64,000 nt of DNA from an uncultured Thermoleophilia bacterium (GCA_963715985.1 CAVQSP010000013.1:611795-675794); one strand, 5' to 3'. Shown: positions 10,982 to 63,891, counted from the first letter of the stretch. Numbers and translations: made by a program. Notes: generated by a model from the sequence alone, not told the origin.

Positions 10982-11057
<76 letters not shown>

Positions 11058-13374: not shown

Positions 13375-14200
13375 TCAGCCCAGGATCAGCCGCTGCGGGT
13401 CGACGTCGTCGCGCAGGATGCGGAGCTCCTCGGCCGTCGGCGGCACCGCCACCGTGGCCCGCGAGAGGTCAAGCGGGAAGCCGGTGTTCTCCTGCACGCG
13501 CTCGGGCGCGACGCCCGGGTAGCGCTCGGCGAGGTACATCTCGTGCGTGTCGTCGTCGAAGCGCAGCACGCAGAGGTTGGTGACCACGGCTATCGGTCCG
13601 CCGCGGCGGTAGCCGGCACGGCGGCGCGAATCGCCGCCCTCGAGCCAGCCGGGCGTGGTGAGGTAGTCCAGCTTCTCCACGAACTTCTTGACGCCGTGCT
13701 GCATGAAGATGATGTACCCGCTGGCCAGCGAGCCGGCGTCGCAGGCGCCGCCGCTGCCGCTGAAGCGCACCGTGGGCGTCCGGTAGTCGCCGATGACCGT
13801 GGAGTTCATGTTGCCGTACTTGTCGACCTGCGCGGCGCCGAGGAAGGCGATGGTGTGCAGGCGCCGGTTGGCGACGTAGCTGAAGGCCTCGACGAGGCCG
13901 GCGTTGAGGTTGCTGAAGGCCATGACGCGCGGATCGGCCACGGCCATGGGCAACTCGTCCAGCGGCGGGCCGATGCCGCCGGTCTCGAAGAAGATGTGCG
14001 CCTGCGGGGCGTGGATGCGCTTGGCCACCGCGGCCGCGAGCATGGCCACGCCGGTGCCGGCGAAGAGCACGTCGCCGTCCTTGATGAAGCGGCCGGCGGC
14101 GATGGCCATCATCTCGCGGGGGGTGTAGACGGGCGGCCTCGGCGGCCTCGGCGGCTGCGGCGGCCTCGGCGGCTGCGGCGGTCTCGTTGTTCTCCGGCAT
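13375..14200 (-). CDS. CoA-transferase subunit B, glutaconate/3-oxoadipate type (apparent frameshift near 14130)
   Basis: EMMAIAAGR..DGDVLFAGTG, FETG, FLGAAQVDKYGNMNST, GSGGACD, VVTNLCVLRFD. Confidence 0.9.
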
Positions 14201-14205
14201 CGCGC

Positions 14206-15183
14206 TCACCTCCGGTCCAGGCCCGGCGCGTAGCCGGCCACCGTGTTGGCGCGGATGCGGGCCAGCTGTGCGCCGCCCACCTTGTCCAGATACGCGTCCC
14301 AGCTCTCGACGCCGTACACCCACTCCTCGAGCTAGGCGGCCCAGGACTCATCGTCCTTGGCCACGACCTTGTAGTGGTTCAGGTGCGCGGGGTCGTAGTC
14401 GTAGAAGTAGCGGCAGGCGGTGGGGTGGGCGCCGTAGGGCACCGGCACCACCGCGTCGACGAGGAAGGGCGGCAGCGCGTTCTGGTCGGGGTCGAGGCGC
14501 AGGTAGTGCTCGGGGACGATCTCCTCGCAGGTGACGATGACGGCCCCGGCGGCCTTGCACTGCTCGAGGTCCGCGAAGGTGAGGCCCTTGATGCGCACGG
14601 TGCCGTCGGTGCTCACCTGCTGCGCGTGGATGATGGAGACGTCCGGCGTGAGCGCCGGCAGGAGCACCACCTCGTCGTCCTTGGCGCCGAAGGGGTCGTC
14701 GATGACGATCACCTTCTCGCACGGGATGCCGTCCTCGCAGCGCAGCTCGGGCGGGAAGCCCGACTTCTCCACCACGTCGGTGCCGAGCCCCGACTTGCTG
14801 GGGATGAACGGCACGTTGAGGGCGCCGGCCAGGAAGCGCAGGCTCATCATGTTGTTGGTGTAGTCCTCCACCAGCACCTCGCCGCGCTCGACGGCCTTGC
14901 GGAAGCGGATGCAGGTGGGGGCGAAGCGGCCGTTGCCGCCGTAGGCGATGTCGAGGCGGCGCACGCAGCCGGCGCCGATCAGCACGTCGAGCGCCTGGCC
15001 GTTGGAGTGGGCCACCAGGTGCAGGTCCTTGACGCGGCGGCGGGCGATCTCGTACACGGCCGCCATCGGGTTGCGGTTGATGGTGAAGCCGCCCACGGCG
15101 ATCTGGCAGCCGTCGGGCACGAAGCGCCCCACGGCTTCGCCGATGCTCATGAGCTTGCCGTCCAGGCCGTTGTGCTCAGCCAT
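14206..15183 (-). CDS. CoA-transferase subunit A, glutaconate type; in-frame TAG at 14332-14334
   Basis: KLMSIGEAVGRFVPDG, LIGAGCV, LRFLAGALNVPFIP, VVPVPYGAHPT; the frame continues after TAG with LEEWVYGVESWDAYLDKVG to TGA at 14206. Confidence 0.9.
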
Positions 15184-15230: not shown

Positions 15231-15369
15231 GTGCCTTAACGCGAAAGCCCCCAGCAGGCGTCGCCACCTGAGCTGGGGGACAGGGCCTGACGGAGAGGCC
15301 GGCGGGAACGCCGCCGGCCCGGACCCTGTGGCAGCGCATCCATGATACACGGGGGCGGCGGCGGTGCAA
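15231..15369 (-). promoter_or_regulatory. Promoter (TTGCAC-16bp-TATCAT) and structured two-hairpin leader of CoA-transferase operon
   Basis: Stems CAGGGTC/GGCCCTG and CCCCCAGC/GCTGGGGG followed by CTTTCGCGTT; same layout at 59091-59202. Confidence 0.6.
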
Positions 15370-31544: not shown

Positions 31545-31928
31545 ATGAGCGAGGAGCCCACCTTTCTCTTCTCCGGGTACGCGCGGCTGCCGCAGGACGT
31601 GAGTCACCAGGCCATGTACAAGCGCGTGGGCGTGGTGCTGGAGGTCGACGCGGCCGGCGAGGTGGTGGCCTGCAGCACCACGCTGATGATGCCGGTGGCC
31701 TCCGACTTCTTCGGGCGCCTTCTGGTGGGACGCAACGTGCTCTCCGAACGCCGCGAGATCGAGGCTCTCGTCCGCTACCGCTACCGCGGCCACTCCCAGG
31801 GTGCGCTGATCTCGGCGCTCCACAAGGCGTTCGAGGCCGTCGACCAGAGCCCGCTCGTCTCCCCGGAGGCCCACGTCACCTCCGAGGCCGGCCGTGGCAC
31901 AGACTCCGAGACGGAGACGCTCGGCTAG
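31545..31928 (+). CDS. DUF3870-like protein
   Basis: FSGYARLPQ....YKRVGVVLEVD..GEVVACSTTL.....RYRGHSQGALISAL pattern recalled for this family. Confidence 0.7.
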   Translation: MSEEPTFLFSGYARLPQDVSHQAMYKRVGVVLEVDAAGEVVACSTTLMMPVASDFFGRLLVGRNVLSERREIEALVRYRYRGHSQGALISALHKAFEAVDQSPLVSPEAHVTSEAGRGTDSETETLG

Positions 31929-36726: not shown

Positions 36727-36884
36727 GGTGGCCCCTCCTCCACTGGTGTGCGCCCCTGCGCGCGGCTCGCTCCCTACGAGCCGCTTCGTGAGTGTACGCC
36801 TTGCTGTGGTCTGCAGAGCGTTTCGTCGCCGCCGTTCCCCGGCCGTTGTCGCAGTTGTACGCTTCACTTGGGAGGGGGCATGGG

Positions 36885-39800: not shown

Positions 39801-40313
39801 CGGATGATGGCGCTCTACGCGGGGGCGGCCGTTCATCTGAGCCTCGGCCACGCGGACGAGGGCCTGGGCCTGCTGGCGGAGTCCTTCGCGTCGCCGCGGG
39901 CCTCCGCCGCGGCACCGGACGACCTGCCGCAGGCGGTGAGAATGACCCTTATGGGCGGCGACGCGAAGCTGGCCCGACGGCTGGCGACCGAGACAAGGAA
40001 GTACATGCCGGCGAAGCTGCTGCCGCTGCAACAGCACGCGGTGGCGACGCTCGACGCGCTGTTCGCAGAGGTAGACGGGGACCGGGCGGCTGCGGCCGGC
40101 TTCGCCGACGCCGCCGCCCGCTGGCACGAGTTCGGCGTGCCCTACGAAGAGGGGCACGCCCTCCTGGGCGAGGGGCGCTGCCTGGTGGCGCTCGGAAGAG
40201 CGCCGGAGGCGGCAGCGCCCCTCGCCGCGGCCCGCGAGATCTTCGCGCGGCTCGGCGCCAGGCCGGCACTGGAGGAGACGGAGGAGTGGCTGGGGAGGGC
40301 GAGCACCTCGTGA
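36885..40313 (+). CDS. Zn-ribbon / class III cyclase / STAND ATPase / TPR protein #1
   Basis: CPSCG..FCLSCG, LFCDLVGFT, EKFIGDAV, GDAVNTAARL, GEPGIGKS, EDLHWA, GNPLYAE. Confidence 0.92.
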   Translation: MIACPSCGARLPGGSRFCLSCGAGLDAAATGLPLTEERKVVTTLFCDLVGFTAMSEGSDPEDVDALLREYSARARRAIEAHGGVVEKFIGDAVVGVFGVPRVHEDDPERAVRAALRLIEMLEGMTRPDGPSLQARCGVNTGEALVRLDVDPLAGLGFLTGDAVNTAARLQAAAPPGGVAVGALTHELTKRAVMYEELPGVVAKGKAEPVAAWRAVRPVARTGLRTAGLTSTRFLGRELELAALHGALERASDAAEARFVLVVGEPGIGKSRLVLEFSRALAASTDLFRWRQGRCLAYGEGVTFWPLGEILKEHAGIYDSDDVATVEAKLEAVLPEGEDGAWLRQRLRPLLGLTASQAAREENFAAWARLLESMAGDRPAVLVVEDLHWAGEAMLAFLEYVLACDLAVPLLIVATTRPELLRQHEGALTSPAGSDRLHRITLPSLSRTDTGALVADLFDGDQAGGVGAHIAELAGGNPLYAEQYARLLLDGGFIARTGDTLDVAGTAELPLPKTVQAVLAARLDTLPREHKALLCDAAVIGETFWQGAVAELAGRDSGAVGEAMAALGARDLVRPAAAPTMEGEPEYLFWHALARDVAYGQLPRKVRARKHQAVARWIEGRTGERGDEFAEIVAHHYTTALDLARAARDAELASSLVAPTVACLARAGERALRLDVAAAERYCARGLELAAPDAPERPRLLQRWAQALWLRRHYREAAAAYRESIAGLQAAGEKRTAAVAMCHLVSVLTWLGEPCFDITRAAVELLADDGPSPERAEVLGLYALGLILLDEEPASVVEAADEAVDICRLLELPEPAMALSCRGFAKLQLGDLDGLGDYERAIEAAREQGLGVERTTIELNYADLVFIVKGAQARLDVLHDGAEFALTHGLDSYAIAYRGTIVAALLSAGEWDRALREAEELIVEYDAHEELWDVLTMRSLQALILSAKGEAGVALPFVSWIVDQGRESEIGWTRMMALYAGAAVHLSLGHADEGLGLLAESFASPRASAAAPDDLPQAVRMTLMGGDAKLARRLATETRKYMPAKLLPLQQHAVATLDALFAEVDGDRAAAAGFADAAARWHEFGVPYEEGHALLGEGRCLVALGRAPEAAAPLAAAREIFARLGARPALEETEEWLGRASTS
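40092..40282 (+). repeat. ~190-bp repeat shared by 3' ends of four cyclase-STAND genes (other copies ~43464-43655, ~46966-47157, ~51721-51912)
   Basis: GCCGGCTTCGCCGACGCCGCCGCCCGCTGG.ACGA.TTCGGCGTGCCCTACGAAGAGGGGCACGCCCT...GCCCGCGAGATCTTCGCGCGGCTCGG nearly identical in all four. Confidence 0.95.
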
Positions 40314-47336: not shown

Positions 47337-48566
47337 ATGTTGATCCCACGCACGCTCGAGGCCCGTCTGCAGGAGTCGGCCGGTCCGTTCCCCGTCCTGT
47401 TCCTCACGGGTCCCCGGCAGAGCGGCAAGACGACGCTCGCACGCATGGCGTTTCCCGACTACCTGTACGTCTCACTCGAGGATCCGCAGCGCAGGGCGGA
47501 GGCGCTGGAGGACCCGCGGGCGCTCCTTCGACGGGTCGCGGGGGCGCCCGGAGTGATCTTCGACGAGGCACAGCGCGCGCCGGAGCTCTTCTCCTACATC
47601 CAGGGCGTGGTGGACGAGCGACGCGGCGGACCGTTCGTGCTCACCGGGTCGCAGAACTTCCTCCTCTCGGAGAAGATCACGCAGTCGCTCGCCGGCCGCA
47701 CCGCGGTGTTCGAGCTGCTGCCGTTCTCCGTGGCCGAGCTTGTGCGACGCCCGGCCCTGGAGCCGGAGGACTTCTGCAGGGTGCGCGGCGGCGCGGGCGG
47801 CGGGGCGACTCCGACACGGCCATCGCTACCCCTCGAGGATCTCGTGTTCGTCGGGCTCTATCCCGCCATCCACGACCGCGGCGTCGACGCCGCCCAGTGG
47901 CTGCGAAGCTACGTCAGGACCTACGTTGAGCGTGACGCGCGCGCCGTCGGCGCCATCGGCGACCTCGACACGTTCTTGCGCTTCCTCGGCCTGTGTGCAG
48001 GGCGCAGTGGGCAGCTGCTGAATCTCTCGGCGCTGGGGGCCGAGGCCGGGGTGAGCCACAGCACCGCGCGCAGGTGGCTCTCCGTGTTGCGGGCGAGCTA
48101 CATCGTGACGCTCCTGGCGCCGCACCACGAGAACTTCAGCAAGCGCATCGTGAAGACGCCGAAGCTCTACTTTCTCGATACGGGTCTGCTGTGCGCCTTG
48201 CTCGGCGTGCGCGATGCCGACGACCTCTGGAACCACCCGCTGCGCGGCGCCCTGTTCGAGACGTTCGTGGTGGCCGAACTGACGAAGCTCTTCGTTCACT
48301 GCGGCGAGCGGCCCCGCCTCTTCTTCTGGCGTGACTCACACGGCACCGAGGTCGACGTGCTCGTCGATCTCGGTCGTGAGCGCGTGGCCGTCGAGGTCAA
48401 GTCCGGCCTGACGGTGGCCGCAGACGCGTTCCGCGGTCTGGAGGCCTACCAGCGGCTACGCCACGCGAGTGGGGGCGAGTCCGGAGGCAGCGTGCTGGTC
48501 TACGGCGGCGACGAGTGGTACGAGCGTCGCGGGCACGATGTGCGCCCGTGGTGGGCATGTACGTAG
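47337..48566 (+). CDS. AAA_14 ATPase with DUF4143 (PD-(D/E)XK-like) domain
   Basis: GPRQSGKTT, IFDEAQ, LTGSQ, SLAGR, KTPKLYFLDTG, FWRD..G.EVD...VEVKSG. Confidence 0.9.
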   Translation: MLIPRTLEARLQESAGPFPVLFLTGPRQSGKTTLARMAFPDYLYVSLEDPQRRAEALEDPRALLRRVAGAPGVIFDEAQRAPELFSYIQGVVDERRGGPFVLTGSQNFLLSEKITQSLAGRTAVFELLPFSVAELVRRPALEPEDFCRVRGGAGGGATPTRPSLPLEDLVFVGLYPAIHDRGVDAAQWLRSYVRTYVERDARAVGAIGDLDTFLRFLGLCAGRSGQLLNLSALGAEAGVSHSTARRWLSVLRASYIVTLLAPHHENFSKRIVKTPKLYFLDTGLLCALLGVRDADDLWNHPLRGALFETFVVAELTKLFVHCGERPRLFFWRDSHGTEVDVLVDLGRERVAVEVKSGLTVAADAFRGLEAYQRLRHASGGESGGSVLVYGGDEWYERRGHDVRPWWACT

Positions 48567-48585
48567 GCGAGGGATGGGAACCGCG

Positions 48586-51500
48586 ATGAGTGTGTGTGCC
48601 GCGTGCGGCGCCGAGAACCCGGCGCGGGCCAAGTTCTGTAACGAGTGCGGCGCCCAGCTGGCCGCCCCGCACGCCGCGGCGGATGAGCGCAAGATGGTGA
48701 CCACCCTCTTCTGCGACCTCGTCGGCTTCACGGCGATGAGCGAGGCCGCCGACCCCGAGGACGTCGACGCCCTGCTGCGCGAGTACTCGGCCCGGGCGCG
48801 TCGCGTCATCGAGTCGCACGGCGGCACCGTGGAGAAGTTCATCGGCGATGCCGTCGTCGGCGTCTTCGGCGTGCCCGCCGTGCACGAGGACGACCCGGAG
48901 CGCGCCGTGCGCGCAGCCCTGCGCCTGATCGAGGCGCTCGAAGGCATGGCGCGGCCCGACGGCAGCCCGCTCGAGGCGCGCTGCGGCGTCAACACCGGCG
49001 AGGCCCTGGTCCGCCTCGACGTCGCCCCCGGGAGCGGCGACGGCTTCCTCACCGGCGACGCCGTGAACACGGCGGCGCGGCTTCAGGCAGCCGGCCCACC
49101 CGGCGGCGTCGCCGTCGGCGCGCTGACCCACCAGCTCACGCATCGCGCCATCGTCTACCAGGATCTGCCGCCGGTCGCGGCCAAGGGCAAGGCCGAGCCG
49201 GTTCCCGCCTGGCTCGCCACCGCGCCCATGGCCCGCATGGGCGCCGATGCCGAGCGTCGGCAGCTCACTCCCCTGGTCGGTCGCGCGGCCGAGACCGCCG
49301 CGCTTCGCGCCCTTGTCGACAGCGTCATCGCGGCCCGATCATCGCGATCCGTCCTCATCGTCGGCGAGCCCGGCATCGGCAAGACCCGCCTCGTCCAGGA
49401 GCTCTTCGCCCACGTCGACGCCCTGCCCGAGATGGTCACCTGGCGACAGGGCCGCTGCCCGTCGTACGGCGAGAGCATCGCGTTCTGGGCGCTCGCCGAG
49501 ATCGTCAAGGCCCATGCCGGCATCCTCGACGGGGATGACGGTGCCGCCGCAGCCGACAAGATCTCGGCCGCCGTCCTCGACGGTCCCGATCACACCTGGA
49601 TGGTGAACCGCCTGCGGGCTCTCGTGGGTCTCGAGGCACCCCCGGCCGAGAGGGAGGAGAACTTCACGGCCTGGCTGCGCTTCTTCGAGCAGGTGGCCAA
49701 CGACGAGCCGTTCGTACTGGTGGTCGAGGACCTGCACTGGGCCGACGACGGCCTGCTCGCCTTCGTCGAGCATCTCGCGCGCCATGCCGGGGCCGCGCCG
49801 CTCCTCCTACTCGGCACGGCACGTCCCGAGCTGCTCGAGACCAATCCGACGCTCGGTGCAAACGGCGGCGGGTTGACCCGCATGTCGCTGGGCCCGCTCA
49901 CCTCGGCGGAGACGGAGCAGCTGGTGGCAGACGTGCTGGGTGATGGCGAGGCCGAGAGCCGGCAGATCGCCGACATCGTCGCGCGCTGTGCCGGCAACCC
50001 GTTCTTCGCGGAGGAGTCGGCGCGCCTGCTCGCCGACCAGCGGCCCGGGGAGCCAGTGCCTGCCTCCGTCCAAGCCGTGATCGCCGCCCGCCTTGACGCG
50101 CTGCCCGGCGAGGAGAAGACGGCCTTGGCTGATGCCGCCGTCGTCGGGGAGGTCTTCTGGGACGGCGCGCTCACGGAGCTGGGCCGGCGCGAGCGCGTCG
50201 AGGTGGATGCCGCGCTGGGCGCTCTCCACGACAAGCACCTGGTGAGACGGGCGCGCGAGTCCTCAATGGCCGGCGAGAGCGAGTTCACGTTCACGCACGC
50301 CCTGACGCGCGACGTGGCCTACGGCACGCTGCCGCGCCGGGCCCGCGCGCAGAAGCACGCGCAGACGGCCGCCTGGCTGGAAGGCCGGGCGGGCGGCCGC
50401 CTCGAGGATGTGGCCGACCTCCTCGCCCATCACAGCGCCACGGCCTTCGAGCTCGCCGAGGCCGTCGGCGACGGCGAGCTGGCCCAGCGTTGCCGCAAAC
50501 CGGCCGTCACGGCCCTCCGGCTCGCCGGCGATCGTGCCGTGCGGCTCGATGTCGAGGCGGCGGAGAGACTCCTCGCCCGGGCGGCGGGTATCTGCTCTGA
50601 CGAGGACCCGCAACGGCCCGCACTCTATGAGGAGTGGGGCAGGTCGCTGCTCCTGCGCAGTCGCTACGAAGATGCCAGAGTCGCTCTCGAGGAATCGACT
50701 CGCGGCTTCCTTGCGAGCGGACGAAGACCAGAGGCGGCGATGGCCATGATCTCGCTGGAGGTGGCGCAGTTCTTTCTGGGCGGACGGGACTGGCGCGCGG
50801 TCCTCGACGAGGCGATGCTGCTGACCGACGATGAGCCCTGTGGCCAGACTCGGGCCCACGTCCTGACCGCCATCGCCAGCGGCCGGATCGTGCTGGGCGA
50901 CTACACCGGCGGGCTCGACTGGATCAAGCGCGCCGTCGATATCTACGGCCGCTGCGGGCTGGAGGTTCCCCTTCGTCTCCAGGGGTGGCAAGCGCAGGCG
51001 GAATGCGGGCTCGGCGACCGCGGTGCGGGCGACAGGTTGCTTTCGGTGGCGCGTGCGATGAGGGAGGAGGGGCTGGGTCGTGACGCGATGGTCGCCTACT
51101 CCAACTACGGGATCTCGATGTACCCCATCGAAGGCCCTCGCGCCTACGACAGCGCGCAGGAAGGTCTCGACTTCTTGCGCGGTCGCGGCATCTCCGAGGA
51201 GGGGATCCTGGCCATGAACCGTTGCTCTGGCCTCGTATCCGCCGGGCGCTGGGACGAGGCCCGGCGCAGCATGGAGGAGTCTCGCCCCTGGCTGCAGCAG
51301 CAGGACAATCAGCTGGCGTTCTGCTTCTGGTGGGTGAATCGTGCCGAGCTCCTGACACTCACAGGAGAGGGACGGGAGGCGGTCGAATGCGCCCGCGAGG
51401 CGGACGAGCGCGCGCAGCAGTGGGACGACGTGATACGTGTCCATGGTCGTGCGACCCTCGTCACGGCGCTGGCGTGCGCTGGCGACCGGAGGCGAGCGAT

Positions 51501-51933
51501 CGAGCTACTGGCCGGGATCGCGAGTGTCCCGCACCCGAGGGGGTTCCAGGGCTACGAGGAGCTGATCCCCCAGCTGATGCGACTCGCTCTGCATTGCCGG
51601 GAGGCCGCACTGGCCGAACAGCTGATCGCGGGCATCGAGCCCGATGTGCCTCTGCTCGAGCACGTGTTGGTGACGGGACAAACCCTACTGGCGGAGGCGC
51701 GCGGTGAGCACGAAGCCGCGGCGGCCGGCTTCGCCGACGCCGCCGCCCGCTGGCACGAGTTCGGCGTGCCCTACGAAGAGGGGCACGCCCTCCTCGGGCA
51801 GGGGCGCTGCCTGGCGGCGCTCGGCAGAGCGCCGGAGGCGGCAGCGCCTCTCGCCGCGGCCCGCGAGATCTTCGCGCGGCTCGGGGCCAAGCCGGCGCTG
51901 GCGGAGGCGGACGAGTGGCTGACGCACACGTGA
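48586..51933 (+). CDS. Zn-ribbon / class III cyclase / STAND ATPase / TPR protein #4
   Basis: CAACG..FCNECG, LFCDLVGFT, GDAVNTAARL, GEPGIGKT, EDLHWAD, GNPFFAEE; alternative start 48574. Confidence 0.92.
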   Translation: MSVCAACGAENPARAKFCNECGAQLAAPHAAADERKMVTTLFCDLVGFTAMSEAADPEDVDALLREYSARARRVIESHGGTVEKFIGDAVVGVFGVPAVHEDDPERAVRAALRLIEALEGMARPDGSPLEARCGVNTGEALVRLDVAPGSGDGFLTGDAVNTAARLQAAGPPGGVAVGALTHQLTHRAIVYQDLPPVAAKGKAEPVPAWLATAPMARMGADAERRQLTPLVGRAAETAALRALVDSVIAARSSRSVLIVGEPGIGKTRLVQELFAHVDALPEMVTWRQGRCPSYGESIAFWALAEIVKAHAGILDGDDGAAAADKISAAVLDGPDHTWMVNRLRALVGLEAPPAEREENFTAWLRFFEQVANDEPFVLVVEDLHWADDGLLAFVEHLARHAGAAPLLLLGTARPELLETNPTLGANGGGLTRMSLGPLTSAETEQLVADVLGDGEAESRQIADIVARCAGNPFFAEESARLLADQRPGEPVPASVQAVIAARLDALPGEEKTALADAAVVGEVFWDGALTELGRRERVEVDAALGALHDKHLVRRARESSMAGESEFTFTHALTRDVAYGTLPRRARAQKHAQTAAWLEGRAGGRLEDVADLLAHHSATAFELAEAVGDGELAQRCRKPAVTALRLAGDRAVRLDVEAAERLLARAAGICSDEDPQRPALYEEWGRSLLLRSRYEDARVALEESTRGFLASGRRPEAAMAMISLEVAQFFLGGRDWRAVLDEAMLLTDDEPCGQTRAHVLTAIASGRIVLGDYTGGLDWIKRAVDIYGRCGLEVPLRLQGWQAQAECGLGDRGAGDRLLSVARAMREEGLGRDAMVAYSNYGISMYPIEGPRAYDSAQEGLDFLRGRGISEEGILAMNRCSGLVSAGRWDEARRSMEESRPWLQQQDNQLAFCFWWVNRAELLTLTGEGREAVECAREADERAQQWDDVIRVHGRATLVTALACAGDRRRAIELLAGIASVPHPRGFQGYEELIPQLMRLALHCREAALAEQLIAGIEPDVPLLEHVLVTGQTLLAEARGEHEAAAAGFADAAARWHEFGVPYEEGHALLGQGRCLAALGRAPEAAAPLAAAREIFARLGAKPALAEADEWLTHT

Positions 51934-54557: not shown

Positions 54558-56485
54558 TCACGTCCCGAGTGACTGCGGCGGCCGCCATTCGGCCGCCGCC
54601 AGCCGTTCGCGAGCGGTGCGCTCGACGAGGTCGAGCGCCTCGGGCGAGCGGCGCAGCACCTCGCCGAGCTGCTGCGGCGTGAGCATCAGCACCGTGCCCG
54701 GCTCTTCGGCGAGCACCTCGGCGTTGCGCACGGCACCGTAGCCGGCGCCCCAGTCCAGCGCCGCCAGCTCGCCGACGAAGTCGCCGGCCCGAAGGATGTT
54801 CAGCGGGCGCCCGGAGCTGCGCACGCTGAAGCTCCCCTCGAGGATCACGAAGACGTCGCGGCTCGCGTCCCACTGCTCGATGAGCAGCTCGCCCGGCTCG
54901 ACGCGGCGCTCCTCGGCGCGACCGACGAGGTCGGCGACGTCGTCTCCGTCAGCGCCGCGAAGAGCGGCACCCAACGCAGGTCGGCGGCGGCAGTGCTCGG
55001 GCTCGTGGCCCAGCCGCCCACGAGGTCCGGCTCGCGACGCACGGGAGCCGGCGCGGCGTCGCCCAGGTCGAGCGCCTCGAGCGGCGTCTGCTCCAGGATG
55101 TCGAGCACGCGGTGCACGTGCGACGCAGTGGTCGTCGGGTTGAGGACGCACATGCGGATGGCGGTGCGGCCGAAGAGCCGCGTCGAGGAGACGAGCGCCT
55201 CTCCGGTCTGCTCCACGGCGGCGACCAGCGCCAGGTTGATCGCGTCCAGGCGGCGCTCGTCGGTCTCGCCGGGCGGCCGCCGTCGCAGCGCCACCACGCT
55301 CAGGTCCACCGGCGCCAGCAGTTCCAGTTCGTCGCTGGCCTGCACGCGCGCCGCCGCCTCCTGCGCCAGGTCCAGCGCGCCGTCCACGGCGGCGCGGAAC
55401 GCGTCCAGGCCAAACGTCTGGATGGACATCCACACCTTCAGGGAGCGGCAGAAGCGTGTGAGCTGCAACCCCCGGTCGGAGAAGTTGACCTCCTCCTGGG
55501 CGGAGATGTCGCGCAGGTAGTCGGGGGTGATCTCGAAGGCGCGGCGCAGGCCCTCCGGCTCGCGCACCAGGATGGCGCCGCACTCGAAGGGCTGGAAGAG
55601 CCACTTGTGGGGGTCGAGCGTGATGGAGTCGGCGCGGCCGATGCCGCGAAGCGTCTCGCGGCCGCGCTCCGTGAGCGCCGCGAAGGCGCCGTAGGCGCCG
55701 TCCACGTGCAGCCAGACGTTGTGCGCGGCGCAGGCGTCGGCGAGCTGGTCCAGCGGATCCACGGCGCCGGTGTTGGTGGCGCCGGCGTTGGCACACACGG
55801 CCAACGGCAGCCTTCCGGCGGCGCGGTCCGCCGCGATGGCCTGTTCGAGGACGTCCACGCGCAGGCGATGGCTGCGGTCCACCGGGAGCACGCGCACCTG
55901 CCCGGGGCGGAAGCCGAGAGCTCTGGCGGCCCGCGCGATGGAGGAGTGACTCTGCGACGACACGTACACCACGAGGTCGTCGCGCATCGCGCCGACGAGC
56001 CGCTCGCGCGCGCAGGCCAGCGCCGTCATGTTGGCGGCCGAGCCGCCGCTGACGAGGATGCCGGAGGCCGTCTCAGGGTAGCCCAGCCACTCGGCGAACC
56101 AGCGCAGCACCGTGAGCTCCAGCTGGCTGCCGCCGGCGCCGCCGACCCACCAGCACGCATCGAGCATAAGGGCGCTGGCGATGAGGTCGCCCATGGCGCT
56201 CGGCCAGGTGGGGAAGCCGGGGATGAAGGCCATGTAGCCGCCGGCGCCGACGTGTGCGCTGTAGGGCACGACGTCGGCGAAGACCTGCGCGAGCACGTCG
56301 TCGTACGGCCGCCCAGCTGCGGGCGGCGGCCCGTCCAAGCGAGCTCTCAATTCGGGCGCGGACACGCGCCGCAGCACGGGCTGGCTCTCGATGGAAGCGA
56401 TGGCGTCGACGAGCGCGTCCACGGTGCGGTGCCCGATGGCGCGCATCTCGTCCGGGTCGAACTGCAGCGGTCCCCCGTCAGGCAT
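54558..56485 (-). CDS. PLP-dependent group II (aromatic amino acid/glutamate-type) decarboxylase fused to C-terminal cNMP-binding domain (apparent frameshift near 54945)
   Basis: SGGSAAN, HSSIARA, GATNTGAVD, WLHVDGAYG, DPHKWL (PLP Lys); then WVPLFAAL / GDFVGELAAL...RNAEV. Confidence 0.85.
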
Positions 56486-56600
56486 GTCCCGACTTTATCG
56501 GGCGTGAGCGTGGGAGTCCACGCATCGCGTGACCCTCAAGACCTCGTCCTCCGCCATCCTTCAAAGTAGAGTAGTGGTGCATCCGGACCGGGAGGGCCGA

Positions 56601-58256
56601 GTGGGGGCAGAGAGCGAAGGTCGCCTGAAGGCCACACTCGGTGTGTTCGGCACGGCGTTCCGCAATCGCTCCCTGATGCTCGTCGAGCTGGCGTGGCTGG
56701 CCTTCAACAGCGCCGAGTGGGGGGTCTGGCTCGCCCTCATGGTCTGGGCCTACACGCGCGGGGGCGCCGCTGCGGCCAGTCTCATCGTCATCGTCCAGCT
56801 GGTCCCCGCCATCTTCATCGCCCCGTACCTCGGCGCGATCACCGACCGGGCGCGCGCCGGCCGGGTGCTCTTCATCGGTCTCCTCATCATGGGCGGGACG
56901 ATGGCGGCGGTGGCCGCGGCGATCGCCCTGGACGCGCCGGGCTTCGTGGTCTACATCCTCGCGCCCATCATGAACCTGGCGCTCTCCGTGCCCAGGCCGG
57001 CACAGGCGGCGCTGCTGCCCGGCGTGGTGCGCACGCCGCTGGAGCTGACCGCCGCCAACGTCGTCTCCAGCTGGGTGGAGAACGCCAGCGTGCTGCTTGC
57101 GCCGGCCTTGACCGGCGTCCTGCTCGGCGTGGGCGGGCCGGCGCTGGCCGCCGGGGTGCTAGCCGGCTGCACCTTGGCCGGCGCCGCGATGGTGGTCGGC
57201 ATCCCCGGGCCGAAGCCGATGACCGAGCGCGGGGAGGGTGTGTCGCTCACGGCCGAGGTCAAGCAGAGCGTGGCCGCGGTCTGGCGCGTGCCGGCGGCGC
57301 GCACGCTGGTCGGCGTGGTCGGCTCGCAGTACATCCTCGTCGGCGCCCTCGACGTGCTCTACGTCGTGCTCGCGATCACCACTCTGGGCATGGGCGAGTC
57401 GGGCGCCGGGTACCTGAACGCGGCGTTCGGCGCCGGCGGGGTCATCGGGGTCGCGCTCACGACCGCGTTCGTGGCTCGCCGCCGTCTGGCGCCGGCGCTC
57501 ATCGGCGGCATCGTCACGGCGGCGTTCGCGTTGGGCGTGCTCGGCGTCTTCCCCACGGTGGTCGGCGCGTTCGCGCTGCTCGGTCTGGCCGGTCTGAGCC
57601 GCTCCGTGTTCGACGTCACCGGACGCATCCTGCTGCAGCGCGCCGCCCCGCCGCAGGTGCTGGGCCAGGTGTTCGCCCTGCTCGAGTCGCTGATGAACGC
57701 CGGCCTTGCCGTGGGCGCCATCTTTGTGCCGGCCCTGGTCGGGCTGAGCGGCGCGTCCGCCGCTCTCATCGGCACCGCGCTGCTGCTGCTCGTCATCGTG
57801 GCCGTCGTCTGGCGGCGCCTGCGGTCCATCGACGACGCGGCGGACGTGCCCCAGGTCCAGATCCAGCTGCTGCGCCTGAACCCCATCTTCGCGCCGCTCC
57901 CCGCCCCCGAGCTCGAGGGCCTCGCCCGCGCGCTCGTCCCGGTGAAGGTGGCAGCCGGCACCACCGTCATCCGTGAGGGCGACGAGGGCGACCGGTTCTA
58001 CGCGATCGCCGACGGCGAGATGCGGGTGACAAAGAAGGGCGTAGACGTTGCGACCCTGCGCCGCGGCAGCGGCTTCGGCGAGATCGCGCTCATCGAGGAC
58101 GTGCCACGCACCGCCACTGTGGTCGCCGTCACGGATGCACAGCTGTTCTCTCTGGAGAAGGAGCCGTTCTTCCTGGCGCTGACCGGTCACGCCCCCGCGG
58201 CGCACGCTGCGAGCGACCTGGTCACGCAACGGCTCGGCGAGCTGGAGGCGCTGTAA
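56601..58256 (+). CDS. MFS transporter fused to C-terminal cNMP-binding domain
   Basis: About 12 hydrophobic segments, G.ITDR motif; C-terminal IREGDEGDRFYAI...GFGEIALIEDVPRTATV; GGAGG RBS. Confidence 0.9.
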   Translation: MGAESEGRLKATLGVFGTAFRNRSLMLVELAWLAFNSAEWGVWLALMVWAYTRGGAAAASLIVIVQLVPAIFIAPYLGAITDRARAGRVLFIGLLIMGGTMAAVAAAIALDAPGFVVYILAPIMNLALSVPRPAQAALLPGVVRTPLELTAANVVSSWVENASVLLAPALTGVLLGVGGPALAAGVLAGCTLAGAAMVVGIPGPKPMTERGEGVSLTAEVKQSVAAVWRVPAARTLVGVVGSQYILVGALDVLYVVLAITTLGMGESGAGYLNAAFGAGGVIGVALTTAFVARRRLAPALIGGIVTAAFALGVLGVFPTVVGAFALLGLAGLSRSVFDVTGRILLQRAAPPQVLGQVFALLESLMNAGLAVGAIFVPALVGLSGASAALIGTALLLLVIVAVVWRRLRSIDDAADVPQVQIQLLRLNPIFAPLPAPELEGLARALVPVKVAAGTTVIREGDEGDRFYAIADGEMRVTKKGVDVATLRRGSGFGEIALIEDVPRTATVVAVTDAQLFSLEKEPFFLALTGHAPAAHAASDLVTQRLGELEAL

Positions 58257-59066: not shown

Positions 59067-59211
59067 TTGCGCGCCCGCTCCGGCCCGGCCTATGATTGTG
59101 CCGCTGCACACATGACCGCAGTCGGGCGCCGTCTCCGCCCCCTGCGCTACAGGTCATGGACCCCCAGCGAACGCATCCGCGTCCCCTGGGGGTCTTCGCG
59201 TTTTCTGGGGG
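59067..59211 (+). promoter_or_regulatory. Promoter (TTGCGC-18bp-TATGAT) and structured two-hairpin leader/attenuator of the acyl-CoA dehydrogenase-fix operon
   Basis: Stems CATGACC/GGTCATG and GACCCCCAG/CTGGGGGTC followed by TTCGCGTTTT. Confidence 0.65.
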
Positions 59212-59239
59212 AATCACCGGTCCCTGAGGAGGGAGCTGC

Positions 59240-60472
59240 ATGGACTTCCGCTACACCACCGAGCAGGAGATGTACCGTCTGGCCATCCGCGAGTGGCTGA
59301 GCAAGAATCTCGAGCCGCGCGCCCGCGGCATCGACGAGGCCGAGAACGGCATCCCCGACGACATCACCGCCGGCATGGCCGAGCTGGGCATGTTCGGCGT
59401 CACCATCCCCGAGGAGTACGGCGGCATGCCGCTCCCCGACGACGAGCGCCTCATCTACGCCATGATCACGGTGCACGAGATCGCCCGCGCCGACCTCAGC
59501 ATGAGCACCCCGGTGTACACGCTGCTCACCATCGGCTGGTCCTACATCGTGAACCGCTACGGCACCGAGGAGCTCAAGCAGGAGCTGCTCCCGGCCGTGG
59601 CCGCCGGCAAGGCGTTCGCCGGCATCAACACCACGGAGCCCGGCGGCGGCTCCGACCTCGCTGCCATCAAGACGGTGGCCCCGTGGGACGAGGCCAGGCA
59701 GGCGTACATCCTCAACGGCGAGAAGGCCTACGTCAGCGGTCCCAAGGAGTGCGCCAAGTGGGGCGCCCCGAGCGGCCACTGCACGCTCGTCAAGACCGAC
59801 CCCACGCAGAGCTACAAGGGTATGACCTTCATCTGGGTGCCCGCCCACCTGGACGGCATCTCCTCCACCGTGTACGACGACATGGGCCGCATGGGCCTCA
59901 GCACCGGCGGATGGATCTACAAGGACGTGGAGCTGCCCAAGGAGTACGTGCTCGGGGAAGAGGGCAAGGGCTTCTACGTCGTCATGGACGGCTTTAACGC
60001 CGCCCGCGTGCTCGTGGTGGCCGCCTGCCTCGGCGGCGCCGAGAAGGCGCTGGAGATCAGCGGCGAATACACGGCCCAGCGCACCACCTTCGGCAAGCCG
60101 CTGGGCAAGTACGAGGGCATCTCCTTCGAGATGGCCGACGACTACATGCAGCTGGACATGCTCAAGCTCAACCTGCTGCGCGGCGCCTGGATGATCGGCA
60201 AGGAGCACACCGAGCCGGGCACCTTCGGGCGCAAGGACATCAACAAGGTGATCAGCACCTGCAAGTGCCTCGCTCCGGCGCTCTGCCACGACATCGCCCG
60301 CCACGGCATGATGTACCACGGCGCCTTCGGCTACACCAAGGAGACGCCGCTCGAGATGCTGCTGCGCGGCGTCATGAGCTACGAAGTGGGCGCCGAGGGC
60401 GGCCTCATGATCATGCGCGGCGTGATCGCCCGCGACGAGTGGGGCGAGACGCACAACCCGTTCAAAGACTGA
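59240..60472 (+). CDS. Acyl-CoA dehydrogenase
   Basis: GMFGVTIPEEYGG, TEPGGGSD, YILNGEKAYVS, LGEEGKGF, QRTTFGKPL, HGAFGY. Confidence 0.95.
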   Translation: MDFRYTTEQEMYRLAIREWLSKNLEPRARGIDEAENGIPDDITAGMAELGMFGVTIPEEYGGMPLPDDERLIYAMITVHEIARADLSMSTPVYTLLTIGWSYIVNRYGTEELKQELLPAVAAGKAFAGINTTEPGGGSDLAAIKTVAPWDEARQAYILNGEKAYVSGPKECAKWGAPSGHCTLVKTDPTQSYKGMTFIWVPAHLDGISSTVYDDMGRMGLSTGGWIYKDVELPKEYVLGEEGKGFYVVMDGFNAARVLVVAACLGGAEKALEISGEYTAQRTTFGKPLGKYEGISFEMADDYMQLDMLKLNLLRGAWMIGKEHTEPGTFGRKDINKVISTCKCLAPALCHDIARHGMMYHGAFGYTKETPLEMLLRGVMSYEVGAEGGLMIMRGVIARDEWGETHNPFKD

Positions 60473-60566
60473 CCGACGTAGCCTGAGGCCCCCGGGCCGG
60501 GTCGCCTGACGGCGCCCGGCCCGCGGCGGCCACGGCCGCCGGTCACGATCAGCCAGGAGAGGTGAC

Positions 60567-61856
60567 ATGGAAACAGTCGAGTGCATCGTCGTCGGTGGCG
60601 GCCTCGCCGGCCTCTCCGCGGCCTACGGCCTGGCTGCGGCCGGCGTCGAGGTCATGGTCCTCGAGCGCGGCGACTACTCCGGCGCCAAGAACGTCACCGG
60701 CGGGCGCCTGTACGTGAAACCGATCAGGCGCTGCTACCCCGAGCTCTGGGAGGACGCGCCGTTCGAGCGCCCGGTGGCGCGCGAGCTGGTCACGATGATG
60801 GCCGACGGCGCCCACACCACGGTGGAGATCGCCTCCGACCGCTTCACGGCGGACAAGCCGCAGAGCTACACGGTGATGCGTGCCAAGCTCGACCAGTGGT
60901 TCGCCGAGAAGGTCGCCGAGAAGGGCGCCATGGTGGTGCCCAACATGAAGGTCGACGAGCTGCTGCGCAAGGAAGGCCGCATCATCGGCATCCGCGCCGG
61001 CGGCGACGAGATCGGCGCCCAGGTGGTCATCGTGGCGGAGGGCGTGCTGCGGCTACTGAGCAGCGCGGCCGGCCTGGCGCCGGAGCCGGAGGCCAGGCAT
61101 CACGCGCTCGGCTACAAGGAGATCATCGAACTGCCGGCGGGCGTGATCGAGGACCGCTGGCACCTGAACCCCGGTGAGGGCGCCGCGCAGCTCTTCATGG
61201 GCACGTGCACCAAGGGCATGATGGGCGGCGCCTTCCTCTACACCAACAAGGACAGCATCTCGCTGGGCATGGTGGTGGGCATGGAGGCCATGCGCAGCCG
61301 GCGCGACGGCACGGAGAGCTGGCAGCTCCTGGACGAGTTCAAGGAGCTGCCCCAGATCCGGCCGCTGGTCGCCGGCGGCACCGTGGCCGAGTACTCGGCG
61401 CACGCCATCCCCGAGGGCGGCATCAGCCAGGTGCCCAGGCTCGCCGGCGACGGCTACCTGGTCGCCGGCGACACCGCCGGCCTCAGCCTCAACGCCCTCG
61501 TCACCGTGCGCGGCATGGACTTCGCCATCGCCTCGGGCTACTTCGCCGCCGAGGCGGTCAAGAAGGCCAAGGCGGCCGGCGACTTCTCCGCCGCCGGCCT
61601 CGCCTCCTACGAGCAGTCGCTGCGCGACAGCTTCGTGCTCCGCGACTTGCAGACGGCGCGCGAGATCCCCAGCTTCATGGAGAACCCGCGCCTCTTCACG
61701 CACTACCCGCAGGCCGTCGGCCGGCTGCTGGAGAGCATCTACACCATCGACGACCAGCCGCAGGCCGGCCACGTCAAGAAGGCCTGGAAGGGCGTCAAAC
61801 GTGACTTCTTGAGTGTGGCGACCGTCAAGGACGCCTGGTCGCTGCGCAAGATCTAG
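60567..61856 (+). CDS. fixC: FixC-like ETF:quinone oxidoreductase flavoprotein
   Basis: VGGGLAG, ERGDYSGAKNVTGG, FLYTNKDSISLG, EYSAHAIPEGG, RGMDFAIASG. Confidence 0.93.
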   Translation: METVECIVVGGGLAGLSAAYGLAAAGVEVMVLERGDYSGAKNVTGGRLYVKPIRRCYPELWEDAPFERPVARELVTMMADGAHTTVEIASDRFTADKPQSYTVMRAKLDQWFAEKVAEKGAMVVPNMKVDELLRKEGRIIGIRAGGDEIGAQVVIVAEGVLRLLSSAAGLAPEPEARHHALGYKEIIELPAGVIEDRWHLNPGEGAAQLFMGTCTKGMMGGAFLYTNKDSISLGMVVGMEAMRSRRDGTESWQLLDEFKELPQIRPLVAGGTVAEYSAHAIPEGGISQVPRLAGDGYLVAGDTAGLSLNALVTVRGMDFAIASGYFAAEAVKKAKAAGDFSAAGLASYEQSLRDSFVLRDLQTAREIPSFMENPRLFTHYPQAVGRLLESIYTIDDQPQAGHVKKAWKGVKRDFLSVATVKDAWSLRKI

Positions 61857-61873
61857 GAGTTGGAGGAGGAGCC

Positions 61874-62155
61874 ATGCCGATGAAGATCGACGCCAAGCTC
61901 GGCCTCGACGTCTTCAAGCTGGACAAAGAGCCGCACATCGTCATCGACACCGACGTGTGCAAGAAGGTGTGCACCGACGAGGCCTGCATCTACGTGTGCC
62001 CGGCCGACCTGTACGAGCGCGACGACCAGGGCCGCATGACCGTGAACTGGGAGGGGTGCCTCGAGTGCGGCACCTGCCTGATCTGCTGCGACCCCCGGGC
62101 GCTCAGCTGGGCGTATCCCAGCGGGCCGTACGGGGTCCAGTACCGGATGAGCTGA
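61874..62155 (+). CDS. fixX: FixX-like ferredoxin
   Basis: PHI..D..C...C....C..VCPA.LY and GCLECGTC.ICC. Confidence 0.92.
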   Translation: MPMKIDAKLGLDVFKLDKEPHIVIDTDVCKKVCTDEACIYVCPADLYERDDQGRMTVNWEGCLECGTCLICCDPRALSWAYPSGPYGVQYRMS

Positions 62156-62168
62156 AGGAGGTGACGGC

Positions 62169-62942
62169 GTGGACATCGTCGTCTGCGTGAAGACCAACCC
62201 GGACCTCCAGATGGTCCGCATCAAGAACCGCGAGGCGGTCACCGAGGCCGTGCCGTACAAGATCGGCGACCTCGAGAAGAACGCCCTCGAGGCGGCCGTG
62301 GTGCTCCGCGACGCCGTGGGCGGCAAGGTCGTGGCGCTGTGCCTGGCCGAGGGCAACCGCAAGGCGGCCGAGGACATCAAGTACGCGCTGGCCATGGGCG
62401 CCGACGAGGCCGTCGTCATCGACGATCCCGCACTCGCCCAGCCGGATCAGGCGGCGGTGGCGGCAGCGCTCGCCGCCGCCGTCAGCAAGATCGGGGCCTG
62501 CGACCTGCTCCTGTTCGGCGAGGGCTCGACGGACAACTACACCGGCCAGGTGGGCGCCCGCGTGGCCGAGCTGCTCGACCTGCCGCAGATCGGCTACGCG
62601 CGCAAGCTCGAGTCTGCGGACGGCGTGGTGCGCTGCGAGCGCAGCATGGACGACATGCTGGAGACTCTCGAGGCGCCGCTGCCGGCCGCGGTCACCGTGG
62701 TCAGCGAGATCAACGAGCCGCGCATCCCGGGGCTCATGCAGATCATGAAGGCGAAGAGCAAGCCGATGCAGGTCTGGTCGCTGGCCGACCTCGGCATCGA
62801 GGCGCTCGCGCCCGTGCGCGAGATCGTCAGCAACCTGGCGGAGGAGCAGGACCGCAAGCACATCCTGTTCGAGGGCAGCGCGGCCGAGCAGGCCGACGCC
62901 TTCGTCGATGCACTGATACGCGAAGGCGTCCTGGGGAGGTAA
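62169..62942 (+). CDS. fixA: Electron transfer flavoprotein beta subunit (FixA/EtfB)
   Basis: IVVCVK..PD, ALAMGADE, DLLLFG..S.D..TGQVG, INEPRIP. Confidence 0.93.
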   Translation: MDIVVCVKTNPDLQMVRIKNREAVTEAVPYKIGDLEKNALEAAVVLRDAVGGKVVALCLAEGNRKAAEDIKYALAMGADEAVVIDDPALAQPDQAAVAAALAAAVSKIGACDLLLFGEGSTDNYTGQVGARVAELLDLPQIGYARKLESADGVVRCERSMDDMLETLEAPLPAAVTVVSEINEPRIPGLMQIMKAKSKPMQVWSLADLGIEALAPVREIVSNLAEEQDRKHILFEGSAAEQADAFVDALIREGVLGR

Positions 62943-62944
62943 CG

Positions 62945-63891
62945 ATGGCCGAGCTGCTCGTCTACAGCGAGAGAGTCGATACCGCCCGCGAGCTGGTCGC
63001 CGGCGGTAAGGAACTTGGTGCGGCCCTCGGCCTCGGCGTGAGCGCCGTGGCCCTGGGGCCGGGCGCCGGAGCCGCGGCGAGCGAGCTCGCCGCCGCCGGC
63101 GCCGACACCGTGTACGTGAGCGAAGACGCCGCCTTCGAGGGCTGGCCGGCCGACGCCGTGGCAGCCGGCCTGGCGCAGATCGCACAGCAGGCCGGCGCGA
63201 GCGTCGTGCTCGTCGGCTCCACGCGCCGCGGCAAGGAGACGGCGCCGCGGCTGGCGCAGAAGCTCGGCGCCGGCTGCGTGAGCGACGTCAACAGCCTGGT
63301 CGCCGAGGGCGGCGACCTGGTCGCCGGGCGCTACGCCTTCGGCGGCGCCACCGTGGCGCGCGAGAAGCTGGCCACGGCCGTCAAGGTGTTCGCCGTGATG
63401 CCCAAGACGTTCAGCGCCGAGGGTGCGACGCCCGGGGCAGGCACGGTCGAGACGCCAACCCTCGACGTCAGCTCGAAGGTGAAGGTAGTCCCAGGCGCCC
63501 GAAAGAGGGCGACCACGTGAACCTGGACGCCGCCCCGCTCATCGTCGGCGTCGGCCGCGGCTTCAACGCCCGCGAGGATCTCGCCCTTGGCGACGAGCTC
63601 GCGGGCGCCCTGGGCGCCGTGGTGGGCTGCACCAAGAGCCTCGCCGACTTCGAGTGGCTCGGCGAGGACCGCATCATCGGCCTCTCCGGCGCCAAGACGG
63701 CGCCGGACCTCTACCTGAGCGTGGGCGTCTCCGGCCAGATCCAGCACACCGTGGGCGTGGCCGGCGCCAAGCTCATCGCTGCCGTCAACAAGGACAAGGA
63801 GGCGCCCATCTTCGCGATGGCCGACTACGGCATCGTGGGCGACCTCTACGAGGTGGTGCCGGCGCTCGTCGAGCGCCTCAAGAGCGTGTGA
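62945..63891 (+). CDS. fixB: Electron transfer flavoprotein alpha subunit (FixB/EtfA; apparent frameshift near 63490)
   Basis: GST..GKE.APRLA, IVGVGRG, IGLSG..APDLYLSVGVSGQIQH, AVNKDKEAPIF.MADYGIVGD. Confidence 0.92.

Follow-up and report, generated by a model that had tools for sequence, protein, structure and literature searches.

A candidate class of cis-regulatory leader RNA shared by CoA-transferase and acyl-CoA dehydrogenase operons in uncultured Thermoleophilia

In transcription-attenuating ON riboswitches, such as the adenine-responsive pbuE leader, the closing helix of a 5' sensor shares nucleotides with the 5' arm of the terminator. ANTAR targets consist of two adjacent hairpins with hexanucleotide loops that carry a conserved A1 and G4, the second hairpin overlapping a terminator. 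As for metabolism, the E. coli caiTABCDE/fixABCX and ydiF-ydiO-ydiQRST operons encode coenzyme A (CoA)-transferases, acyl-CoA dehydrogenases, FixC/YdiS-like and FixX/YdiT-like proteins and ETF subunits, and are controlled by proteins, no leader RNA being known for them. We describe here a leader element that occurs twice in a stretch of 64,000 nucleotides (nt) from an uncultured Thermoleophilia bacterium (GCA_963715985.1 CAVQSP010000013.1:611795-675794), called the window below. One copy precedes an acyl-CoA dehydrogenase (acd) operon and the other a CoA-transferase operon, so that the regulated genes are of the same enzyme kinds as the E. coli sets. We propose the element as a candidate for a new class of cis-regulatory leader RNA, an orphan riboswitch candidate.

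Layout of the two leaders and comparison with known RNAs

By direct sequence reading, the copies lie at 59103-59204 on the + strand (acd copy) and at 15335..15236 on the - strand (CoA-transferase copy). Their features, in window coordinates, are as follows.

59067..59096, + strand: promoter of the acd leader read from the sequence, -35 TTGCGC (59067-59072), 18-nt spacer, -10 TATGAT (59091-59096), then 5 nt and CGCTGC (59102-59107)
59103..59168, + strand: 5' sensor domain with GCUGC (predicted +1), hairpin 1 (P2/P3, 59111-59158, loop CCGUCUC) and the C-run with CAGC (59161-59168)
59111-59117 / 59152-59158, + strand: outer arms of hairpin 1, CATGACC / GGTCATG
59161-59168 / 59186-59192, + strand: arms of hairpin 2, CCCCCAGC / CTGGGGG
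59161..59204, + strand: terminator-like element, hairpin 2 CCCCCAG...CUGGGGG (59161-59192) with U-rich tail UCUUCGCGUUUU (59193-59204)
59195-59202, + strand: tail stretch TTCGCGTT
59205..59239, + strand: linker to the start codon, with a second CTGGGGG (CUGGGGG in the RNA, 59205-59211), a C-rich GGUCCCU and the ribosome-binding site (RBS) GAGGAGGGA (59226-59234)
59240..63520, + strand: acd operon (Pfam, NCBIfam), acyl-CoA dehydrogenase 59240-60472, FixC-like 60567-61856, FixX-like 61874-62155, EtfB 62169-62942 and an ETF-domain frame up to 63520
15342..15369, - strand: promoter of the CoA-transferase leader, -35 TTGCAC (15369-15364), -10 TATCAT (15347-15342) preceded by TGTG
15336-15331, - strand: CGCTGC
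15272..15335, - strand: 5' sensor domain with GCUGC (15335-15331), hairpin 1 (15328-15281, loop CGUUC) and CCCCCAGC (15279-15272)
15328-15322 / 15287-15281, - strand: outer arms of hairpin 1, CAGGGTC / GGCCCTG
15279-15272 / 15255-15248, - strand: arms of hairpin 2, CCCCCAGC / GCTGGGGG
15236..15279, - strand: hairpin 2 CCCCCAGC...GCUGGGGG (15279-15248) with tail CUUUCGCGUUAA (15247-15236)
15245-15238, - strand: tail stretch TTCGCGTT
13375..15183, - strand: CoA-transferase operon (Pfam PF01144), subunit A 15183-14332 and subunit B 14112-13375, family I, glutaconate CoA-transferase-like

This common layout, 44 kb apart, had been proposed in an earlier sequence-only reading, and all of its elements were found in place; Pfam and NCBIfam likewise confirmed the two downstream operons that it had named. 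Each of the two begins with a promoter and an invariant GCUGC, at which +1 is predicted; a long covarying hairpin (hairpin 1), an invariant CCCCCAG/CUGGGGG hairpin (hairpin 2) and a U-rich tail follow. The copies are identical in 63/109 columns of their pairwise alignment, and both fold better than their shuffles (z -2.9 and -2.6). Two covariance models were used for the searches, R1 of the whole leader (built from 22 leaders) and R2 of the 5' domain alone (from 38 sequences). The acd-copy 5' domain scores 77.9 bits with R2 (E 8.6e-15), and the CoA-transferase copy scores 94.2 bits with R1 and 31 bits (E 5e-4) with R2.

In terms of known RNAs, Rfam 15 (4227 families) gave only a tRNA at 10982-11054 in the whole window at the gathering threshold. 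With E up to 10, both leader regions returned noise, the best being SorX at E 0.057, upstream of the motif. The sequence-only reading had recognised no known riboswitch class either. Literature searches, outside supplements, found no published description of the element.

Compared with ON riboswitches of the pbuE type, the leader has the same kind of mutually exclusive helices, genes presumed to act on the ligand, and a conserved sensor followed by a 3' part that varies. It differs in a closing helix of merely 4 bp, an imperfect U-tract and the lack of a sequence or structure match in Rfam. Protein-dependent antiterminator leaders (RAT/BglG-LicT, ANTAR, PyrR) resemble it through a hairpin overlapping the terminator, possible contact sequences and a neighbouring small gene; the differences are that no antiterminator-type domain was found in the annotated neighbour genes and that Rfam gave no match. 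The ANTAR dual hairpin was rejected, since the leader loops measure 3-7 nt, with 3-4 nt for hairpin 2 among the loops listed.

In the part of PMC7297122 that treats them, NAD+-I riboswitches are described as tandem bulged stem-loops, each with a conserved 8-nt ACANCCCC bulge, and their domain 1 (nadA motif) as binding the ADP moiety and having three stacked helical segments, a C-rich loop and a second internal loop. PMC6859854 places nadA motifs in Acidobacteria, exclusively upstream of nadA. Our leader also has three stacked helical segments, a C-rich loop and a second internal loop, but it is a single domain and not a tandem, its downstream genes are not nadA, Rfam gives no match at E up to 10, and contiguous ACANCCCC is absent from 69 representative 5' domains. 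Membership of this class was rejected on these grounds. The ADP moiety is also part of CoA and its thioesters, and the likeness to domain 1 makes ADP-containing ligands such as CoA worth testing, as a lead and not as evidence.

Finally, the odc1 motif is described, in the relevant part of PMC8632094, as a conserved small upstream open reading frame with an RBS-sequestering stem, its downstream genes including family III CoA-transferases (PF02515). The leader element is also found ahead of family III CoA-transferases; it differs in having no conserved start codon or open reading frame.

Covariation, promoter spacing and distribution

We observed that the pairing of hairpin 1 is maintained through changes on both sides. 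Among 105 distinct full-length leaders, standard pairs fill 84.3% of cells against 73.7% in column shuffles; 20/29 pairs change on both sides, the observed scores are reached by 0/500 shuffles, and slid controls collapse. Hairpin 1 carries this signal, with 18/19 pairs covarying on both sides, which bears out the covarying stems claimed from the two window copies. Considering only the 5' domain (76 distinct sequences), 93.8% of cells are paired against 83.3% in shuffles, with covarying pairs in 6/7 of P2 and 5/5 of P3. Like a riboswitch, the leader thus has a conserved, structured 5' domain with covariation-backed helices. The loops of hairpin 1 are CGUUC, CCGUCUC or CUUC, CCGUCUC being found in acd-type and second-family leaders (see below), and the internal loop sets a variable 2-4 nt (often CACA) opposite the pyrimidine run.

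A search for pseudoknots by mutual information over the leader alignment gave top non-nested pairs that merely mirror the split into two leader types. A closing helix of 3 bp, between the nucleotides before GCUGC and the tail CGCG, was proposed by RNAalifold and built into R1. It was dropped despite some A-U/C-G variation in its outer pair, because it lies upstream of the predicted start and the tail sequence is variable.

The spacing to the promoter is fixed. In 107 distinct upstream regions, the end of the -10 box lies 6 nt before GCUGC in 86 and 7 nt in 14. The -10 hexamers are TATCAT (56), TATGAT (22), TAGGAT (10) and others in smaller number, with a TTGC-type -35 situated 16-18 nt further upstream. 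On account of this spacing, the start is predicted at the 5' edge of the motif and not downstream of it, and transcription probably begins at the invariant GCUGC. A strict consensus promoter scan had no entry at either leader copy. In contigs of four public RNA libraries (85% likeness), the acd genes of relatives are covered, as are leader bins from 59103 on in three runs, with no contig over 59052-59102; such contigs show no starts, ends or strand and may include DNA, and no conclusion is drawn from them.

As for distribution, R1 found the leader in 71/89 genomes of the same family of uncultured Thermoleophilia, with two copies in 54, one in 14 and three in 3. Three weak antisense matches, from palindromic stems, were false. 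A strict DNA pattern of hairpin 2 and tail was present in 22/60 other genomes of the family and in 0/40 genomes of other families of the class, 5 of its 28 places being chance matches (L005, L014, L015, L018, L023). Across the class (151 genomes), R2 found the 5' domain in 16/25 genomes of this first family, in 4/25 of a second family and in 0/100 from nine other families; a single extra match lies inside a coding region, without a promoter. Within the scope of these searches, the leader therefore appears confined to two families of uncultured Thermoleophilia, soil and wetland actinobacteria that are represented by metagenome bins only. This conservation in relatives, together with the covariation, places the likeness of the two leaders beyond chance.

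A dispersed repeat or mobile element was rejected, as the covariance-model search gave one to three copies per genome, always in the same cluster and, in each locus with Pfam annotation, before CoA-transferase or acd operons beside a gene for a DUF3870 protein; the homologues are not scattered, as the sequence-only reading required of a regulatory element. In the typical genome two copies stand divergent, about 450-850 bp apart, with the DUF3870 gene between them. A copy of either type, acd or CoA-transferase, resembles its counterparts in other genera more closely than it does the other copy in its own genome.

Every locus annotated with Pfam (the window, L060, L064, L078, L125, L131, L133, L138, L144, L165, L186, L187 and L188) has a CoA-transferase of family I or III or an acyl-CoA dehydrogenase/Fix/Etf operon downstream of the leader, beside DUF3870. 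A crude start finder assigned 68/105 distinct leaders to CoA-transferase or acd genes, leaving 37 over. The leader is thus associated, again like a riboswitch, with a coherent gene set of one pathway. The divergent copies flanking DUF3870 in most genomes give the order of the ancestral unit as [CoA-transferase B, A <- leader <- promoter] [DUF3870 ->] [promoter -> leader -> acd, fixC, fixX, etfB, etfA]. As far as sequence analysis reaches, these results support the earlier proposal of a cis-regulatory switch co-regulating CoA-ester metabolism.

The presence of the leader and of DUF3870 agrees in 86/89 genomes, of which 68 have both, 18 neither and 0 DUF3870 only; the remaining 3 are incomplete genomes with a single leader copy and without DUF3870. 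Across GTDB (one genome per species), 79 DUF3870 loci of this type were found, all from metagenome bins and labelled mostly Thermoleophilia, Actinomycetota, Actinomycetes or Gaiellales, with one Deltaproteobacteria. At least one leader lies within 3 kb at 75/79 of these loci, 67 by R1 and 8 more by the 5'-domain model.

At more distant DUF3870 loci, R1 scores are weak; the leaders share GCUGC, YYYCCAGC and hairpin 1, whose loop is often CCGUCUC. These second-family leaders have about 125 nt of different sequence between the 5' domain and the start codon. Their gene order is [GntR-FCD-HAD regulator <-] [DUF3870 ->] [leader] [CoA-transferase family III, acd, fixC, fixX, etfB, etfA], with acd first in the operon in one genome; the use of a family III CoA-transferase is a further likeness to cai. 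The same sensor may therefore be joined to a differing platform in this family. Pairing of the C-run/CAGC with the RBS found no support as a general rule there, with a mean z of -0.61 over 10 leaders, of which 4 had <=8% of shuffles as good.

Lastly, in its own genome (an assembly of 4.35 Mb, 70% GC, 88.8% complete and 7.29% contaminated) the layout occurs in the two window copies, in one more copy that is 98% identical to the acd copy, and nowhere else. The third copy, an acd-type leader with the start of acd, lies at about 15651-15771 (- strand) at the end of the small 15.9-kb contig C18, and is probably a strain duplicate in the bin, given the contamination. A loose regular expression for the 5' domain had 8 chance matches in this genome.

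Competing helices and possible modes of control

Hairpin 2 is 29-36 nt long, with a mean folding energy of -17.8 kcal/mol (103 distinct leaders). Its interior varies freely in sequence with the pairing kept, and its base is nearly invariant, with a compensatory variant CCUCCAG/CUGGAGG in L124 and a few leaders with G-U pairs. The 12 nt that follow are 50% U, compared to 13% in the rest of the leader.

When the RNA is truncated after CAGC, a helix between GCUG and CAGC is part of the minimum free energy structure in 68/69 representative 5' domains, the acd copy included. Hairpin 1 lies inside this terminal helix, which closes an internal loop with the pyrimidine run in it. With the whole leader present, the hairpin 2 state is the more stable; a fold constrained to have the terminal helix is less favourable by 9.5 kcal/mol for the acd copy and by 2.9 for the CoA-transferase copy. 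Since the C-run and CAGC also form the 5' arm of hairpin 2, the terminal helix and the terminator-like hairpin would be mutually exclusive. Furthermore, second-family leaders retain GCUGC...YYYCCAGC, with no clear conservation of the CUGGGGG arm and the tail, so that these nucleotides seem to belong to the sensor and not solely to a terminator. The competition between GCUG:CAGC and hairpin 2 put forward in the sequence-only reading is therefore thermodynamically plausible and fits this retention; covariation gives the proposed helix swap no backing, as both strands are invariant. The same reading also offered the second CTGGGGG as another pairing partner. It is indeed present in the window, but a general role did not hold, since CYRGGGG variants of it are confined to the acd-type leaders of one genus, the closest.

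Our preferred reading, to which we give about even credence, is that of an ON-type anti-termination leader stabilised by an effector, most likely a metabolite of the pathway acting directly on the RNA. Transcription would start at the invariant GCUGC, and the first ~66 nt would form a sensor hairpin, in which GCUG:CAGC closes the internal loop with the pyrimidine/C-run, followed by the two covarying stems. The C-run and CAGC would double as the 5' arm of the strong hairpin with its U-rich tail, the two states excluding each other. By the logic of attenuators, the early, weaker helix would need to be held by an effector to block the later, stronger terminator-like hairpin, at which transcription would otherwise end. 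The downstream operons code for a CoA-transferase and for an acyl-CoA dehydrogenase/ETF module, which makes a carboxylate or a CoA species the probable effector: the substrate itself as a carboxylate, the thioester that it forms with CoA, or CoA. With its ligand bound, the nascent RNA may retain the terminal helix, so that the terminator does not form and both operons are switched on.

A bolder version, which we regard as unlikely, makes the leader the first natural riboswitch class for CoA or an acyl-CoA thioester, reading the ADP part in the C-rich loop beside GCUG:CAGC and activating the CoA-transferase together with the enoyl/acyl-CoA redox module, both from a single anaerobic pathway of carboxylates. 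We know of no natural CoA-sensing RNA, a point at which our literature searches were not aimed.

Several observations weigh against the anti-termination reading. In terms of the terminator, the tail is interrupted by CGCG and has no canonical U-tract, a consensus terminator scan had no entry at either leader copy, and hairpin-plus-T-run sites are barely enriched genome-wide (476 against 424 in a reversed-sequence control). The CCCCCAG/CUGGGGG pair is moreover wholly invariant within the family, which a simple terminator does not account for. As for the sensor, the terminal helix is always possible but never varies on both sides (76 distinct 5' domains), has merely 4 bp and rests on the complementarity of two invariant motifs; conserved unpaired positions are few, which is unusual for a metabolite pocket. 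The divergent GntR-type regulator gene of the second-family clusters indicates that DNA-level control is present as well, and the patterns of G-run, C-run and G-rich RBS in the linkers suggest that there may be translation control too. Finally, DUF3870 occurs together with the leader, which leaves some probability for a protein effector.

This last point is the basis of a protein-dependent attenuator, possible but on the unlikely side, in which an RNA-binding protein (DUF3870 or an unlinked factor) on GCUGC, the C-run/CAGC or the hairpin 1 loop would stabilise the anti-terminator when the substrate is present, much as in the leaders served by known antiterminator proteins. It would explain why DUF3870 lies between or just upstream of the leaders and shares their distribution, why conserved junction nucleotides are few, and why invariant sequence in a paired stem is combined with a conserved apical loop CCGUCUC, as is typical of protein contacts. 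The DUF3870 model, on the contrary, shows no RNA-binding fold among the matches listed, only a weak likeness in VIA-align to IscU, FMN-binding and CO-dehydrogenase flavoprotein C-terminal domains (best Z 8.6), and the invariant residues of the protein (D, S, H, Q, Y and a GHS motif) seem to resemble a small-molecule or metal site. Furthermore, in genome G068 of the same class, DUF3870 stands beside a thioesterase gene, and beside genes for a lyase, a CoA ligase and a TRAP transporter, away from any leader; these contexts fit an enzyme or accessory role in CoA metabolism. Quite unlikely, in our view, is a constitutive 5' untranslated element without sensing, in which the pairing at the 5' end and the stability of the hairpins would shield the mRNA or determine how fast it is processed and translated. 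The predicted 5' end is paired from nucleotide 1, both hairpins are very stable and no ligand is known, all of which such an element would explain; a stabiliser needs neither GCUGC, CCCCCAG and CUGGGGG to be invariant across genera nor a U-rich tail, the sharing by exactly two operons of one pathway would be unneeded, and the exclusive pairings would be purposeless.

Two further explanations place the function outside the leader transcript of the operons. That the element is a stand-alone small RNA gene of ~100 nt acting in trans, with the operons expressed from elsewhere, is very improbable: it has its own promoter and a terminator-like end, and the acd-type loop is complementary to GGAGACG of the other copy in two genera, but orientation and distance to the operons are fixed, no second promoter is seen in the usual 24-94 nt between tail and start codon, and the loop complementarity is not general (see below). 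Barely credible is an action at the DNA level, with CCCCCAG...CTGGGGG and GCTGC as operator sites, or with DUF3870 inside a mobile or invertible segment that has the two copies as its inverted repeats. A perfect inverted repeat with hardly any variation does form the base of hairpin 2, and the copies are inverted around a small gene; against this, the repeat spacing varies with the length of hairpin 2 and its interior pairs with different sequences, the G-U pairs and the strand-specific covariation in hairpin 1 point to RNA, and the copy types are more alike across genera than within a genome, with synteny stable across two families. DUF3870 always pointing toward acd, together with the type-wise likeness of the copies, gives no sign of inversion or concerted evolution.

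If it acts as a regulatory RNA, the leader would add a well-delimited cis-regulatory class with clean comparative evidence, namely two copies per genome, one pathway and two apparent platform types. A 66-nt RNA is enough for a direct test of whether RNA sensors for CoA-type cofactors exist. Through its link with the leader, DUF3870 can be placed in the pathway, and the leader offers a way towards the pathway substrate. With a protein as effector, the element would amount to a new antitermination system instead.

Two patterns of complementarity were seen besides these helices. Downstream of the tail, a G-run, a C-run and a G-rich RBS follow one another in both leader types (window 59205-59239, and 15235-15184 on the - strand), and a pairing cascade between them could couple hairpin 2 to translation. 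In two genera, the acd-type hairpin 1 loop GCGCCGUCUCCGC (window 59125-59141) is complementary to GGAGACG in hairpin 2 of the CoA-transferase-type leader (e.g. L099, L103, L107) from the same genome, with a duplex of -13 to -20 kcal/mol. A third genus lacks this complementarity; GAGACGG is found in cis ~105 nt downstream in two second-family leaders. Loop-to-hairpin-2 pairing was rejected as a general feature, random re-pairing having a mean of -9.0 kcal/mol, compared to -9.4 for the true pairs in trans and -8.6 for those in cis, and it could be a loop contact or a coincidence.

DUF3870 and neighbouring genes

The DUF3870 gene of the window was located by tblastn and Pfam.

31545..31928, + strand: DUF3870 gene (Pfam PF12986, E 1.2e-19), found between the two leaders in most relatives

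The protein is small and highly conserved, with an invariant stretch LFSGYARLPQDVSHQ. PF12986 had no match in 14 control genomes. The structural model (predicted local distance difference test, pLDDT, 81) has a three-strand sheet plus helices; no PDB sequence match was found, and Foldseek gave nothing at E <= 0.001. The neighbours of DUF3870 are always CoA-related genes. The E. coli cai/fix and ydi sets differ from the present operons in lacking a DUF3870 gene.

As for the enzymes, CoA-transferase subunit A matches PDB 1POI, a glutaconate CoA-transferase (E 2.2e-58), and the closest solved relatives of the acd product are generic acyl-CoA and glutaryl-CoA dehydrogenases. Sub-threshold NCBIfam matches of the operon proteins were PRK12341, PRK12342, PRK10015, PRK10157 and PRK15449.

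In the window the ancestral unit is split: unrelated genes separate DUF3870 from the leaders, by 16 kb on one side and 27 kb on the other. The genes in this intervening region (15457-59090) include a duplicated DUF1801 (15457-15834 and 31055-31516), an 1818-aminoacid FG-GAP repeat protein (18900-24356), a LuxR-AAA protein (32584-34812) and two adenylate-cyclase/AAA_16 proteins (36792-40313 and 48469-51933). The window also holds two DUF4143 ATPases, several cNMP-binding proteins, an MFS-cNMP fusion (56529-58256) and a pyridoxal phosphate (PLP) decarboxylase (54845-56485, - strand). An ammonium transporter gene (11870-13111, - strand) comes next after the CoA-transferase subunits, in the same orientation.

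Variations of the operons were also found in relatives. At L060:7891-8622 an IMP-cyclohydrolase-like gene (PF07826) is inserted between fixX and etfB, and at L078:7131-8801 a TetR-family gene and a dimethylamine-methyltransferase-type (Dimeth_PyL) frame adjoin the CoA-transferase operon.

Finally, five clusters of the CoA-transferase-III type have, on the opposite strand upstream of DUF3870, a fusion of a GntR DNA-binding, an FCD ligand and a HAD-type hydrolase domain, at the following positions.

L125:1187-2707: GntR-FCD-HAD fusion
L138:1300-2847: GntR-FCD-HAD fusion
L144:245-1903: GntR-FCD-HAD fusion
L165:3147-4778: GntR-FCD-HAD fusion
L186:6917-8437: GntR-FCD-HAD fusion

This combination of domains is unusual for a regulator. 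At L165, a YchF-type GTPase gene lies between the fusion and DUF3870.

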